A stretch of DNA of 61,086 bases, the filler included. It is 14 parts of 14 records of this genome, joined end to end, with 100 filler letters (N's around TTAATTAATTAA, not from the genome) between each part and the next. Parts side by side here need not be neighbours in the genome. Positions count along the whole stretch, not along the records: positions 52,953 to 56,030 come from SRR15195285_9775; 13 more parts are not named here. The stretch is one strand, 5' to 3'. Position 1 is the stretch's first letter, and each line of letters starts with the position of its first letter. A program made the position numbers and the translations under genes. Of the stretch, positions 1-56,939 are shown piece by piece. The notes beneath the pieces are model-generated. The model was not told the origin of the DNA and did not search any database. It saw only the letters and a list, made by a program, of their open reading frames with translations.

Positions 1-380
1 TATGGTCAATTTCGCCGAAAAATGACATGTGCTACAATGTGCTACATTGTGGCTATAATTGTAGCAATAGTACACGAATAGTACCGCTGAACATGAATTT
101 ACCGTTTGGAATTCCATGCTGTACCGTGTACGCGATACCGGGTTCTTGAGGAGTACCCAGTACAGTACTAGAGTACCGGTCTACTCACTACTGTGTCGAC
201 TCGCCGTGCCCACGGCCGGACGGGTGCAACGATGCGTGCCTCGCCGCGGGGTGCACGCGCGCGGGGTAAATCCCGCGCGACTGCATCGTGCATGATCGCG
301 GCGTCAGCATCATCGCGCGCACGCGCATCGCACGCAGGGAGCGAGCGTATTGCGTATAGCCTGGCGCAGCAGCCTGCGGG

Positions 381-52492: not shown

Positions 52493-53537
52493 TTCACGCA
52501 GCTGCTGTCGTGTGGCGGCCGGCAGTGAGCCTCAGTCCGACGGCCGTCGCCCTGCTATGATTCGGCGCCTCGAGGCGCCCGCGCTGTCATCAGTCAGGTG
52601 TACGCACGCGCACGTTTCCAAAGAGTCCAGCCGCAGGCCGGCACACAGCACGGGGCCGGCAACTTCAGGTTCGTGCGTGCAGTGCTCACCGAGCGCAGGT
52701 TCGGGAGGCAAAAGCAGGCAGGCCGGCAACGCGGCGTGACCGTCGGAAGCATGCATGCGACCGTCCGCCCGCACTCGGCGTCGCGCGGTGGCGTGCGTCT
52801 GCGTGCGTGCGCAGTGACCGCGGCACCAGGGGGTCAGGTTTTGGTTCGAAAGNNNNNNNNNNNNNNNNNNNNNNNNNNNNNNNNNNNNNNNNNNNNTTAA
52901 TTAATTAANNNNNNNNNNNNNNNNNNNNNNNNNNNNNNNNNNNNNNNNNNNNTGCAGCACACTCCGCGGACCGCCCCGAGCCACTGGTTTTCTTCGCATA
53001 CATCTACCAGTATTGCTATTAGCCGGCCTCGCCTACTATGTCACCGGAGCGACTCGGTCGTTCAGGCGATTCACACTGTGGCGTGCGGCCGCGGGGTCCC
53101 CTCTGTTTCTCAGTGCGTTCTCAGTACTAACTACCGCATACTAGTACGGTACGGTACGGTACCGGTAGACTGCCTGTTTCAGTGTTTCTCGTGGTGGTGG
53201 TGCTGGTGGTGGTGCTGTCGAGGGAAGGTGGAGGTGGTGGGCTGGGTGTGGCTGTGGTTGGAGTGACTGCGAGGTGCTTGCAGCCTGGTGCTGGGAGGCG
53301 GGTGTGCTGCGCTGCTGCGTGTGGGAGGGGCTGGAGTGCAGTGGGTGTGCGCACGTGGCAGCTCCGGCCAAGGGGCGTGGTGAGGCGCCAGGCCTCTGTC
53401 GCTCGCGAGGGAGGCTGCTGGCCGCGGCCACCAGATGTGAGTGTGAGTGGAGGAGCTTGTGAACCGGAAGTGTGGACGCGTACACCGCTGTGCGCAGTGG
53501 CCCGGCTCTCTCTCTCTGTCGCTCGCGCGCGCGCGCC

Positions 53538-54701
53538 ATGGAGGGCATGCGAGACGACGTCGACGGCGAGATGCCTGGTGGCGGGGCAGCAGCCGGAGCC
53601 GCGCCGGCGGACGCTGGCGGCGGCGTGGCGACAGCCAGCAGCGGCGGCGGTGGGAGCGCTCTGGGTCGCCTGTTCCGGTCCTCCCGCACGCGGCGCAACG
53701 ACGAGGCCGTCGAGCAGCTGCTGGCCATGGGTTTCGAGCGCGCCCAGGCAGAGGAGGCCATCGCGCAAGTCGGCCCCGACCCGAACCGCGCGGTCGACTA
53801 CATCCTCGGCGACCACGGCATCCAGTCGGACGAGGAGCCCGACGACGAGGCGCTGGCTGGCGGTCCCGACCCGGGCGGCGGTGCCGCCGCGTCTATCGTC
53901 GGCGCGGACGCGGCGGAGGCGCTGATCCGCGCCCTCGACTCGCCGGACCAGACCGACCGCCTGCGCGGCCTCTTCGAGAGCCTCCAGCGCGAGCAGGACG
54001 GTGGAGACGTGCAGTGGGGCCAGCTGCTACAGGTGCTCCTGTCTCGAGTGCAGCCGGTCGAGAGGAACGAAGGTGCGACGGAGGAGCAAGTCAGCGCCGC
54101 GCTGCCGGAGACCGAGATGACGGAGGAGCTGCTGTCCGCGCACGGCGACGACGGCGGCGAGTGCGCTTGCCCACTCTGCATGGAGTCCATCGACGTGGGT
54201 CAGCGCGTGGCGCGATTGCCGTGTGGCCATCTGTACCACCGCAGTCCGGCGCTCCCAACGGGGACCGAGCTGCCCACGGCAGTGACGGTGAACGGGCACG
54301 ACTGCACGCTCGTCAGTTTCGAGCAGCTGAGCTACTCCGCATGGATATGCGATGTCTGCCTTCGCAACCAGGGCAAAGGAGGGACGTTCTTCCACGACGG
54401 TCCCATTGGCACACCAAACGACAACGGTTTCGACTGCTGCGTCCGTTGCGCGCAAAAGCACGCAGTGCTCGGCGAGGAGATGGCAAGCGTCTGCGGCGGA
54501 ATAGATGCGTGGCTCATGACCACTCCGAACTGCCCGACCTGCCGCGCGGCAGTTTTACCAAGCGCAGCGGAGGCAAAGGTGGAGGGCGGCGGAGCAGACG
54601 CCGACCAGGCCGCGCCGCTGCAGCAGCAGGTGGCCACGCAGACGCCGGCCGCAGATAGTGCGGCCTCTGCAGAAATGGCAGACTTGGCAGATGTGGACTA
54701 G
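53538..54701 (+). CDS. UBA + RING-H2 E3 ligase with a zinc finger nested inside the RING
   Basis: UBA motif VEQLLAMGFERAQAEEAI..NRAVDYIL. RING-H2 motif CPLC..LPCGHLYH [insert] C..IDAWL..CPTCR. Confidence 0.85.
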   Translation: MEGMRDDVDGEMPGGGAAAGAAPADAGGGVATASSGGGGSALGRLFRSSRTRRNDEAVEQLLAMGFERAQAEEAIAQVGPDPNRAVDYILGDHGIQSDEEPDDEALAGGPDPGGGAAASIVGADAAEALIRALDSPDQTDRLRGLFESLQREQDGGDVQWGQLLQVLLSRVQPVERNEGATEEQVSAALPETEMTEELLSAHGDDGGECACPLCMESIDVGQRVARLPCGHLYHRSPALPTGTELPTAVTVNGHDCTLVSFEQLSYSAWICDVCLRNQGKGGTFFHDGPIGTPNDNGFDCCVRCAQKHAVLGEEMASVCGGIDAWLMTTPNCPTCRAAVLPSAAEAKVEGGGADADQAAPLQQQVATQTPAADSAASAEMADLADVD

Positions 54702-54893
54702 CTCACACGCAAATGGCAAACGCGTAGTAGTCGCAGGCGCAGCGCGGCTTCTAGCGACTTCAACGGAGCGCCAGTGGTACATATACAGTATTTGATATTT
54801 GGCCTGGATCCATTTCATCACGCACACACACATTTGTCGTGTGCCACTGCGCTGCGCACGATTCGGCGATTTGAAGAGTTGCAAATCGTTGAG

Positions 54894-54959
54894 TTGCTCT
54901 GCCGACCCTCCCTCGATGCATCCGAACGGTGCTCCGAGGAAAGCTCGACGTCATAGCAA
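54894..54959 (-). promoter_or_regulatory. Candidate SECIS element (K-turn core hairpin) in the 3' UTR of the TGA-containing gene
   Basis: Minus strand: UUGC-UAU-GAC-GUCGAGCUUUCCUCG...CGAGGGAGGGUCGGC-AGA-GCAA. It has an AUGA/GA core, and 14 of 15 helix positions pair. Confidence 0.5.
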
Positions 54960-55037
54960 TCGCGGCAGTACATGGCTTTTCGGCAGGTCACGCAGACCTG
55001 AACGACCGCTTGCTCCGTGCATCGGACGGTCTACAGT

Positions 55038-55524
55038 TTACTTCGGAGCGGGGCTCTCGCTCAACCCAGACAGCAGCGCGTTGAACGACGACTTCAGTGG
55101 ATCGGAGCCGCCGCTACTGGGCCCACCTGCACCGCCAGCCTGTGGCGTAGCGCTCGACGGCGCCGACGCGGCAGCCGGTGCTGTACCAGCAGTCGGCGCT
55201 GGTGCCTCAGCTGGGGCGGCCGCTGGGGCCGAGGCAGAGGCAGCACGAGGAGGCTTCGCCGCGGGCTCGTCCTGAGGGTGCTTGCCGGTTCTGTACACGC
55301 CAGCCGCGGGAGTCAGCCATAGAACGCGGGACACGGAGGCACGAGCGCGTTCTGTGAGGCGCGGATATGGAATCGCACGATGAAAATGCTGCTAGAGACG
55401 CCACTTACTTCCATCCTGGGCAGCGCCGAGCAGTGGGGATGCCGTTCAGCGCCTGCTCGATGTGCAAACCTCATCCCGCCCATGTCATCAACCCGCATGT
55501 GCTGCAGAGAATTGAACGGCACAT
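55038..55524 (-). CDS. Small CxxC / WAG-U-GxH protein, candidate selenoprotein (in-frame TGA at codon 18); 2 exons, 122 aa
   Basis: Exon 1 (55524-55409) reads MCRSILCSTCGLMTWAG*GLHIEQALNGIPTARRCPGW, with TGA at 55473-55471. Intron GTAAGT 55408..55291 TACAG has a CTGAC branch site. Exon 2 (55290-55038) reads KTGKHPQDEP...SPAPK-TAA. Confidence 0.75.
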
Positions 55525-56939
55525 CGCGCCAGGCGCCAGCAGCTACCCGCCGAGAGCCGTACTGCGACGAGCCTGTGTCACGCTTAGCCTAGCTGTACCA
55601 CAGGCACCAGGCGCACCAGCGGCACCGCACAGCGGCCAGCCCTGAGCTCGCGCTGCTGTTGCTGCCCGTGCCCGACGTCAGTGCGGAAGGCGGGCGATGG
55701 CTGCGATCCGCCCCGTAGGTCCCCTCGAACGCGAAGATGTTGGCGCCTCAGTCGTAATCCACGTGGCAGTAGTGCCGATCGCTCACGGTCTGAGGCTCCT
55801 CGCCAGCACCAGAGAGTAAAGGTAAGGCAGCGCTGATGGGCGCCCTCGGCATCCACGCACGCGCGCGCAACCACGCGCGCGTGCGCCGCGCGCGGCGTGA
55901 GTCGACGCCGCCGGACGACCACCGCGTGGTCAGCAGCCGAACCGGCCAACAACGTCGCATAGTACTTATTAGGTACATTATCGATGATAACTGTAGGTAC
56001 CCCAGTCCACCGAACCGGGCTGTCAGCGCTNNNNNNNNNNNNNNNNNNNNNNNNNNNNNNNNNNNNNNNNNNNNTTAATTAATTAANNNNNNNNNNNNNN
56101 NNNNNNNNNNNNNNNNNNNNNNNNNNNNNNTGCGTCGAATGCGCGTGACGCGGATTCTCGATTACGTAAATTGCGGCCGGCGGGCCAACGCCATGGCAGT
56201 GGTGCTCGCGCTACAGTGGGTGGGCGCTGGGCTGGGCGGCTTGTGGGACGCTCAGAGGGCAGCGATAGGGCGCTGAGAGGCGGGGGAGGGGAGGCAGGCG
56301 CGGTGGGAGGGAGGCAGGCTGGCTGGTGGCACGTGGTATACGTTTAGTGCCCTGTTCTGCACCCTGCAGGGCGCTGCAGGGCGTGAGGAGCAAACCGAGC
56401 GCTTTTGAGGTTTGGGAGGTGTCTTTGGCGCGGCTGGACTGCTGGCCGGCGGCGCTGAGGGTGCCGAGGGCCAGTGCTGTAGAACACGAGCGAGCAGCGC
56501 TGTCTGGCTCTTGAAGTGGTCTTGGCAGCCGGTCGCAGCTAACACCATGGCTTAGACCATGAGTTACACCATGGTTCTTAAAAGATAACGGTGGTGTGTG
56601 CCTAGCCAGCACCGACCGACGCAGCGAGCGCCCCTGGGAGCTTGATTGTCCAGCGGGATGGCAGTATCGTGCTCGAGCACTGCTCGGAGCCGTGCTGGTG
56701 GCCAGGCGCACCAGCGGATGCAGCAGCTGTACGCGAGCTCTGAGCACATGAGAGTGGCGGCAGAAGCGGCTCAGGCGCAGCACGGCGAAGCGTCGTATGA
56801 GTATAGCGCAGCCCTGGAGCGCTGGAATGCGACGCTGCAGTATCTAGACCTGTTCATTCACGAGCTCGTGGCGGTGTCGATGACCCAGGGAGGCTCGGCG
56901 TGCCAGGCTGCAGCCCACAGCGGTTGGTAGGCTCTCAGA

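Follow-up and report, generated by a model that had tools for sequence, protein, structure and literature searches.

We describe a short two-exon gene (positions 55524-55038, minus strand) in a 61,086-nt stretch of marine-protist DNA, referred to throughout as the window, whose eighteenth codon is an in-frame TGA that falls on the invariant cysteine column of a small, Cys-rich protein family. We conclude that the gene is real and very probably encodes a selenoprotein (a probability of roughly 0.82), in which the UGA at codon 18 would be read as selenocysteine (Sec) under the direction of a selenocysteine insertion sequence (SECIS) hairpin in the 3' untranslated region (UTR), that is, by the ordinary eukaryotic recoding mechanism. 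Cys occupies position 18 in most members of the family, in Actinomycetota, fungi, plants and algae, and TGA in many marine protists and in at least one bacterium-like contig.

A split gene with an in-frame TGA at an invariant cysteine

The candidate gene lies on the contig at 52953-56030 and opens with an ATG at 55524-55522, six codons downstream of an in-frame TAG. Exon 1 (55409-55524, minus strand) starts with this codon, runs for 38 2/3 codons and reads MCRSILCSTCGLMTWAG-TGA(55473-55471)-GLHIEQALNGIPTARRCPGW, ending AA|GTAAGT; it encodes the entire conserved Cys-rich domain, MC..C..CG...TW.G-U-G.H...RC.GW, with the proposed Sec codon (55471-55473) as codon 18. A 118-nt, phase 2 intron (55291-55408) of the form GTAAGT...CTGAC...TACAG, with CTGAC 92 nt into it and TACAG at its end, splits the codon for Lys-39. 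Exon 2 (55038-55290) completes that codon to give GWK-TGKHPQDEP..., continues with an 83-residue tail rich in Ala, Pro and Ser, and closes with TAA at 55040-55038. A scripted join of these coordinates yields a spliced coding sequence of 369 nt, or 123 codons, where stops occur only at codon 18 (TGA) and codon 123, and thus a predicted product of 122 residues. On re-reading of the minus strand, the positions that a preliminary description of the locus had given for the ATG, the TGA, the intron and the TAA all prove correct, and the gene is, as was also claimed there, absent from the open reading frame (ORF) track; selenoprotein genes are routinely mis-annotated, the Sec codon resembling a stop. 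It is important to note that the window consists of about 14 contigs of 3-6 kb each, joined at 13 places (window 5949-56130) by two 44-N runs flanking a 12-base linker, so that arguments from neighbouring genes are valid only inside one contig.

Exhaustive searching of 1.84 billion representative proteins with the 39-residue exon-1 product (phmmer, E<=1e-3) recovers 460 matches, the best at E 2.7e-11 and 64% identity over residues 1-39. The top two, P0002 and P0003 (Closterium), are built of tandem low-complexity repeats and are not family members; these repeat proteins aside, the best relatives measure 50-130 residues and are 50-66% identical over an alignment that starts at their first residue. 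Given these 460 relatives, the word-index protein searches with exon 1, which gave no match among longer or similar-length proteins, are false negatives. In an alignment of 139 sequences C7, C10, G17, C18 and G19 are invariant, and M1, C2, T14, W15, H21, R34 and C35 are at least 90% conserved; the window product has all twelve of these positions at its N-terminus, with U at 18. The motif first put forward for the family, MC...CxxC.K.TWAGCG.H(I/V)...VP...RC, is borne out, as is the placement of the TGA on a conserved Cys, and the domain of about 40 residues can be written as M-C-x4-C-x2-C-G-K-x-T-W-x-G-(C/U)-G-x-H-x12-R-C. The 154 stored proteins give 146 motif matches, in which the Sec/Cys column holds C 143 times and W three times, one of the 143 being the window's own database copy, entered with C for U. 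The three W forms (P0012, P0014 and P0126, reading W-x-G-W-G-L-H-I) are all of eukaryote type, two of them fused to BolA, and probably represent TGA translated under code 4 by a gene caller.

Named members of the family comprise one chrysophyte, two haptophytes and Leifsonia, while the ESM Atlas clusters are mostly labelled Ascomycota and Streptophyta, all of them as 'hypothetical protein'. A genome scan finds the domain in at least 590 prokaryotic stretches, the best 80 of which come nearly all from Actinomycetota. The occurrence in actinobacteria that the preliminary description had named is thus confirmed, whereas that in fungi rests only on the automatic taxon labels of the Atlas clusters.

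The TGA itself is widely shared. When a metagenome collection was scanned for the motif with TGA fixed at codon 18, 39 loci were returned, 14 of them unrelated and 25 of them family members, the latter forming 19 clusters at 95% nucleotide identity with G+C contents of 0.42-0.76. These 25 loci start with M-C and, past the TGA, keep G-x-H-(I/V)..AL..V...RC.GW.TG.C. The closest relative, L005, keeps the TGA and can be aligned to the window only from just before the ATG to AAG|GT, where 19 of 117 nt differ (84% nucleotide identity), as compared with flanks that are about 35% identical. Codon changes between the two number 13 synonymous and 2 non-synonymous over the whole alignment, and 8 and 0, respectively, past the TGA: the protein has been under purifying selection across this codon. 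A DNA contig from another sequencing run (X2), 98.5% identical to the window, also keeps the TGA and shows no difference in the 116 nt of exon 1, its 15 differences over about 1 kb including three each in the intron, exon 2 and the 3' UTR. Similarity therefore does continue past the TGA, as had been asserted from the single sequence, and what the preliminary description had proposed to look for is found: Cys homologues are abundant, independent TGA homologues occur in 19 further lineages, and synonymous divergence between the window and L005 is seen on both sides of the TGA.

Elsewhere in the window TGA is an ordinary stop codon and is not reassigned, again as claimed at the outset: of 28 ORFs of at least 250 codons, 14 end in TGA, 13 in TAG and one in TAA, and one window ORF runs for 1067 codons without any TGA. 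The GH59, kinase and U-box genes originally cited in this context lie on other contigs of the same assembly. The 61-kb window holds no tRNA genes.

SECIS elements, splicing and competing readings

SECIS elements were searched for with a descriptor, scored by ViennaRNA, that requires (A/G)UGA, 8 or more base pairs, an AA left unpaired 9-15 nt further along, a GA and, flanking these, a helix I; a first, looser descriptor had a background of 0.5 per kb, too permissive to back the window candidate. Downstream of the TGA gene the descriptor finds a strong AUGA-type SECIS in six homologues: L015 (293 nt past the TGA, with the stop at 207 nt, -52 kcal/mol), L035 (242 nt, with the stop at 210 nt, -43 kcal/mol), L009 (628 nt, with the stop at 414 nt, -40 kcal/mol), L028 (663 nt past the TGA, -35 kcal/mol), L018/L019 (839 and 896 nt past the TGA, respectively, -31 kcal/mol) and L013 (228 nt past the TGA, -30 kcal/mol). 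ATGA-type elements at -30 kcal/mol or better thus number 6 in 18,676 nt sense-downstream of homologue TGA genes, versus 1 in the 108,665 nt of antisense and upstream background from the same loci.

In one G+C-rich lineage (L018, L019 and L033) the TGA-bearing small ORF (174-353 in L019) lies about 50 nt upstream of a second ORF (401-1057), which encodes a Sec-form MsrA with GUFW at its active site and a PF01625 match at E 2e-42. Compared with the genomic L033, both L018 and L019 show the exact removal of two GT..AG introns and are thus spliced transcripts that retain the TGA, and past the stop of MsrA lies one canonical SECIS, so that the arrangement looks like a bicistronic selenoprotein mRNA; L019 differs from L018 by an in-frame 57-nt insertion inside MsrA. 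In L004 (2873-3045, minus strand), the TGA form sits in a bacterium-like setting of tightly packed, uninterrupted ORFs (GT2, FabD/NMO-like), with GGAGAG just before its ATG and a 7-bp hairpin, GUCGAGC-AGGU-GCUCGGC, starting 9 nt past the UGA, at the place expected of a bacterial SECIS. L020 (G+C 0.76) shares with L004 the bacterial-type C-terminus RC-x-C.

In the window, two SECIS candidates lie downstream of the stop codon on the minus strand. Candidate A (54898-54954) has AUGA at 54954-54951 and GA at 54899-54898, at the base of a 51-nt hairpin that begins 84 nt past the stop; its inner fold scores -29.9 kcal/mol (-35.8 kcal/mol with flanks), with a z-score of -3.5 and 1 of 200 shuffles as stable, and it is unchanged in overlapping contigs. 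Candidate B (54760-54818), with AUGA at 54818-54815, then 14 nt, an unpaired AA, an apical mini-stem and GA at 54761-54760, is all that the stricter descriptor finds over the 2,521 nt that follow the TGA, and has consensus spacing. Its fold is weak and A+U-rich (-22.3 kcal/mol, z -0.5), its apex being a 23-nt A+T-rich patch (window 54760-54820, minus strand) in a region of G+C 0.64; z-scores do not discriminate here, since the clear SECIS of L018 also has a z of -0.6. The convergent neighbour of our gene, at 53463-54701 on the plus strand, ends 59 nt from candidate B, so that the two 3' UTRs would overlap; it encodes a 412-residue UBA plus RING-type zinc-finger protein whose relatives are unnamed metagenome proteins only, the domains (PF00627, PF22562, PF13639 and PF17123) being taken from precomputed Pfam assignments on those relatives. 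We favour candidate B over candidate A and give it even odds of being the SECIS used by the window gene, while candidate A on the one hand, and an element elsewhere or none at all on the other, both seem unlikely and to a similar degree. MAFFT alignments of the SECIS candidates are not structure-consistent, and a single-sequence covariance model built from L018/L019 (R1) recovers only itself, L028 (at 11.1 bits) and, at window 248-334, a match confined to helix I.

The intron is backed by comparison with L005, which is interrupted at the same codon, and in the same phase, by an intron of its own (GTGCGT...CTGAC...CTCAG), unalignable to that of the window. Exon 2 after this intron reads TGKHPRDAAPPPP, versus TGKHPQDEPAAKPP in the window, and the two begin with the same TGKHP; the 'GWKTGK' produced by splicing further fits the GW(K/R/E)TG(K/Q)C motif of eukaryotic relatives. 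Other TGA homologues (L001, L016, L023, L030/L039, L025/L038 and L028) have introns inside the domain at various places, after ..DDAL, after ..ALRG or after ..GWETG, and intron positions are thus not conserved across the family.

Several observations weigh against parts of this picture. No spliced joint is seen in contigs from RNA libraries, and those that reach the intron are unspliced: one (X15, 55269-55444) runs through it and another (X8, 55180-55353) crosses the acceptor. Both are shallow (depth 6.7 and 8.2) and, coming from metatranscriptomes, may represent pre-mRNA or DNA; the three RNA runs give no contig over 55445-55661, so that most of exon 1 is without RNA cover, a gap that, like the ends of contigs, carries no weight either way. 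The Rfam SECIS model has no match in the window at gathering scores, nor in 53800-55700 at E<=10, nor in 20 or 16 homologue loci, a silence that is uninformative, as the model also misses the textbook-looking SECIS of L035 and L015. Candidate A is without the unpaired AA motif, and candidate B ranks 27th of 36 descriptor matches in the whole window, against a background of 0.30 matches per kb, or 0.09 per kb when the ATGA type alone is counted. Among the homologues, the L019 SECIS lies 64 nt past the downstream Sec-MsrA ORF, and that of L018/L019 probably belongs to MsrA; the L013 SECIS overlaps the end of its own read-through ORF, which leaves four elements (L035, L015, L009 and L028) just past their own stop codons; and 13 of the 19 TGA lineages yielded no strong SECIS candidate.

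Three other readings of the locus can be set against this one. Were the intron retained, translation would stop at the TAA within GTAAGT (55407-55405) and yield a selenopeptide of 39 residues, with 'exon 2' as 3' UTR, an outcome in keeping with the unspliced contigs of two RNA libraries and with the fact that exon 1 alone holds the whole conserved domain. The L005 donor, GTGCGT, however, carries no stop, the TGKHP frame is restored there only after its own intron, and the spliced GWKTGK matches the family motif; we weigh this comparative evidence more heavily than the RNA contigs, shallow and possibly derived from DNA or pre-mRNA as they are, and regard retention as improbable. Alternatively, the gene could be real and its TGA decoded without any SECIS, whether through a near-cognate tRNA (for Trp, Cys or Arg) or through some lineage-specific trick. 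The window has no proven SECIS, most TGA lineages yielded no strong candidate, and three relatives bear W at this column, the outcome of TGA under code 4 though also of a true TGG; yet the TGA appears only at one invariant Cys, in 20 lineages that span G+C 0.42-0.76, canonical SECIS elements come right after the stop in L035, L015, L009 and L028, many homologue contigs end before a SECIS could appear, and TGA terminates the ordinary genes of the window, which together render non-Sec decoding more improbable still. That a Cys-form gene has here decayed to a pseudogene or a nonsense allele, or that the TGA is an error of assembly, might be argued from the Cys of most database relatives and from the single assembly in question, but is hardly credible with the same TGA in L005 at 84% nucleotide identity, in another run's contig and in 19 other lineages, and with exclusively synonymous change past the codon. 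Together, the Cys column, the TGA copies, L005, the X2 contig and the genetic code exclude, for practical purposes, a nonsense allele, an assembly error and a reassigned code, and leave Sec insertion at codon 18 of a spliced gene as the preferred reading.

A Cys-rich domain and its possible chemistry

The product matches no curated family model, of selenoproteins or otherwise, in agreement with the initial statement that no described selenoprotein family is known to have this motif. Pfam has no family for the window domain, nor for the domain in the 139 aligned members; NCBIfam 20.0 gives none for 8 of 10 members scanned and only weak matches for the other two (best E 0.018); and PDB sequences give no match below E 0.8. 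A prediction by AF2, computed with an alignment, models the 39-residue domain with a predicted local distance difference test score (pLDDT) of 91.9, with strands at 3-6 and 13-16 and short helices, and structural searches with this model return no significant fold match. An RnfB-type Fe-S domain was considered and set aside: weak matches to it (E 0.018-0.12) occur in only one of ten members scanned, PF04060 does not appear in the 25 entries listed out of 35 Pfam families matched by the 139 members, and the Cys spacing is C-x2-C-x7-C-x16-C here, as opposed to C-x2-C-x4-C-x16-C in the N-terminal domain of RnfB and corrinoid Fe-S proteins.

Beyond the twelve conserved positions, a seventh conserved Cys/His position is Cys in most eukaryotes, His in the window and L005 (GWKTGK-H) and, two to three residues past C35, H or C in bacterial members (RC-x-G-H or RC-x-C). 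Judged from sequence, this Cys/His exchange suggests that the domain has at least one metal site. Fusions to BolA are found by Pfam in P0062, P0126 and P0012, and P0106 shows, by eye, only the start of a BolA-like segment; OTU/otubain-like catalytic motifs, likewise recognised by eye, are fused to the domain in P0045 and P0154. Single members match DUF3470 and CMD/AhpD-like families. A subgroup of TGA forms that begin with 'MCW' (L035, L015, L009, L017, L014, L027 and L028) has a second module downstream of the domain, C-(P/K)-x-C-G-x3-x-A-x-(S/T)-x3-L-x3-(I/L)-x-A-H ... C, which looks like a C2HC zinc finger; the 'MCR' subgroup to which the window belongs is without it.

The bacterial Cys forms provide a functional context. 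Of the 58 actinobacterial loci whose flanks span the full 4 kb, drawn from related genomes such that counts overstate independence, 22 have a rhodanese-domain gene within two ORFs of the Cys form; it directly adjoins the Cys form at 16 loci and shares its strand at 13. All 11 scanned neighbours carry Rhodanese: 4 combine it with a metallo-beta-lactamase fold (the persulfide-dioxygenase type), 3 with a pyridine-nucleotide disulfide reductase (the persulfide-reductase type), plus one that also has TusA and DsrE, and 3 with the YgaP membrane domain. A TauE sulfite exporter is found near the Cys form in 7 of the 58 loci and a CsoR-type repressor in 3, the union with rhodanese coming to 28. In P0115 the domain itself is fused to a YgaP membrane domain and takes the position that rhodanese holds in neighbouring proteins. 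A further set of neighbours, cluster 2 at 16 actinobacterial loci, was discarded as spurious G+C-rich antisense ORFs. The rhodanese, TauE and CsoR-type neighbours correspond to a sulfane-sulfur oxidation circuit established experimentally in Streptomyces coelicolor, which consists of a PDO-rhodanese, TauE, a CsoR-like sensor and rhodanese (PMC7533328), and the available part of that report does not mention a small Cys protein of this family.

With the Cys forms placed beside rhodanese-fusion persulfide enzymes, we infer a role in sulfane-sulfur chemistry. In this view the domain would be a miniature module for handling sulfur, with residue 18 at its reactive centre, where it would either accept sulfane sulfur (persulfide) or attack it; a small Cys/His scaffold, probably stabilised by metal, would hold the residue in place, and selenium would raise the nucleophilicity of this centre. 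Resting on the analogy with these neighbourhoods, this proposal of a persulfide-handling module whose reactive atom is residue 18 is a tentative one, to which we assign somewhat less than even odds. What the Sec/Cys pairing directly implies is chemistry at position 18 only; it is by inference that the function is carried over to the Sec form of a protist from what surrounds the Cys forms of actinobacteria, the 58 loci share ancestry, so that 22 of 58 are not 22 independent events, and no fold match backs any mechanism.

The main rival to sulfur transfer, though not exclusive of it, is that the protein is a selenoprotein in which residue 18 serves as a metal ligand, either in a treble-clef-like Zn site (C7, C10, U18 and H21) or in an Fe-S cluster. 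The model places the CxxC knuckle where a beta-hairpin turns and (C/U)-G-x-H where a helix begins; the Cys/His switch at the seventh conserved position and the additional C-x2-C...H...C module of the MCW subgroup are consistent with a ligand role, about half of the top Foldseek rows are zinc fingers, all of them non-significant, and one member has the weak RnfB Fe-S match at E 0.018. We consider this reading plausible but, on balance, doubtful. Equally doubtful is the fullest form of our preferred account, in which an unlisted family, found in many marine protist lineages and extending to bacteria, would act through its 40-residue domain as a new, miniature non-thioredoxin persulfide relay with Sec or Cys-18 as acceptor, bicistronic in one lineage with Sec-MsrA and there employing one SECIS for both UGAs.

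Relation to known selenoproteins

The main text of Jiang 2020 (PMC7539508) reports 42 algal selenoprotein families together with the new PDI_e, AhpC_b and SymSEP, an undefined 'Hypo' family with about 80% Sec forms, and a rhodanese-like algal selenoprotein. That of Lobanov 2007 (PMC2375036) presents three Ostreococcus 'hypothetical proteins' as selenoproteins, and that of Zhang and Gladyshev 2008 (PMC2398784) describes GOS_A to GOS_C and an FmdB CxxU family from ocean metagenomes; Liang 2019, as far as its main text goes, covers known selenoprotein families only, and the text of BSepDB 2026 comes without a family list. The main texts on algal and ocean selenoproteins give no motif that could be compared, the sequences being confined to supplements, and contain no prior description of the family, with the supplements, SPDB and BSepDB outside this search; a motif-based search of the literature (WAGUG and WAGCG variants) returned unrelated papers only. 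The Ostreococcus hypothetical proteins 1-3 and 'Hypo' are, like the family described here, marine-algal and without a recognised domain, a likeness that extends to their main-text descriptions only. We conclude that this is probably a new selenoprotein family, with an appreciable minority chance that it is already listed under an uninformative name, such as one of the algal 'hypothetical selenoproteins'.

Sec-form relatives are essentially missing from protein databases. If unlisted, the family would add a non-thioredoxin Cys-cluster domain to the eukaryotic selenoproteome, and one that is common in ocean plankton, with 19 further TGA lineages in one metagenome scan. The Sec/Cys pair moreover marks C18 as chemically critical in an uncharacterised protein, and the bacterial neighbourhoods tie this residue to persulfide and sulfide-stress genes, which provides a concrete hypothesis for a nameless protein.

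SelW, SelH, SelT and SelM are short, thioredoxin-like proteins with a single N-terminal Sec, Cys-form homologues and a 3'-UTR SECIS. They have a thioredoxin-like fold and a CxxU motif, whereas here no such fold is predicted, the 39 residues being modelled as two short strands with short helices, and Sec lies in G-U-G-x-H, eight residues after the CxxC. Sec-MsrA (GUFW) is of unrelated fold and family (PF01625) and is a partner on the L018/L019 transcript only. The FmdB zinc-ribbon selenoprotein, compared through the main-text description (PMC2398784), likewise places Sec in a Cys cluster of a tiny, putatively metal-binding protein with many Cys homologues, but is bacterial only, has its Sec in the CxxU knuckle itself and uses a bacterial SECIS. 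Rhodanese, TusA and DsrE show no sequence or profile similarity to the family domain, which is a third of their size and has five further conserved Cys/His; like them, however, it would centre on one reactive Cys or Sec, and it adjoins persulfide dioxygenase, persulfide reductase, TauE and CsoR-type genes and can replace rhodanese before the YgaP membrane domain.

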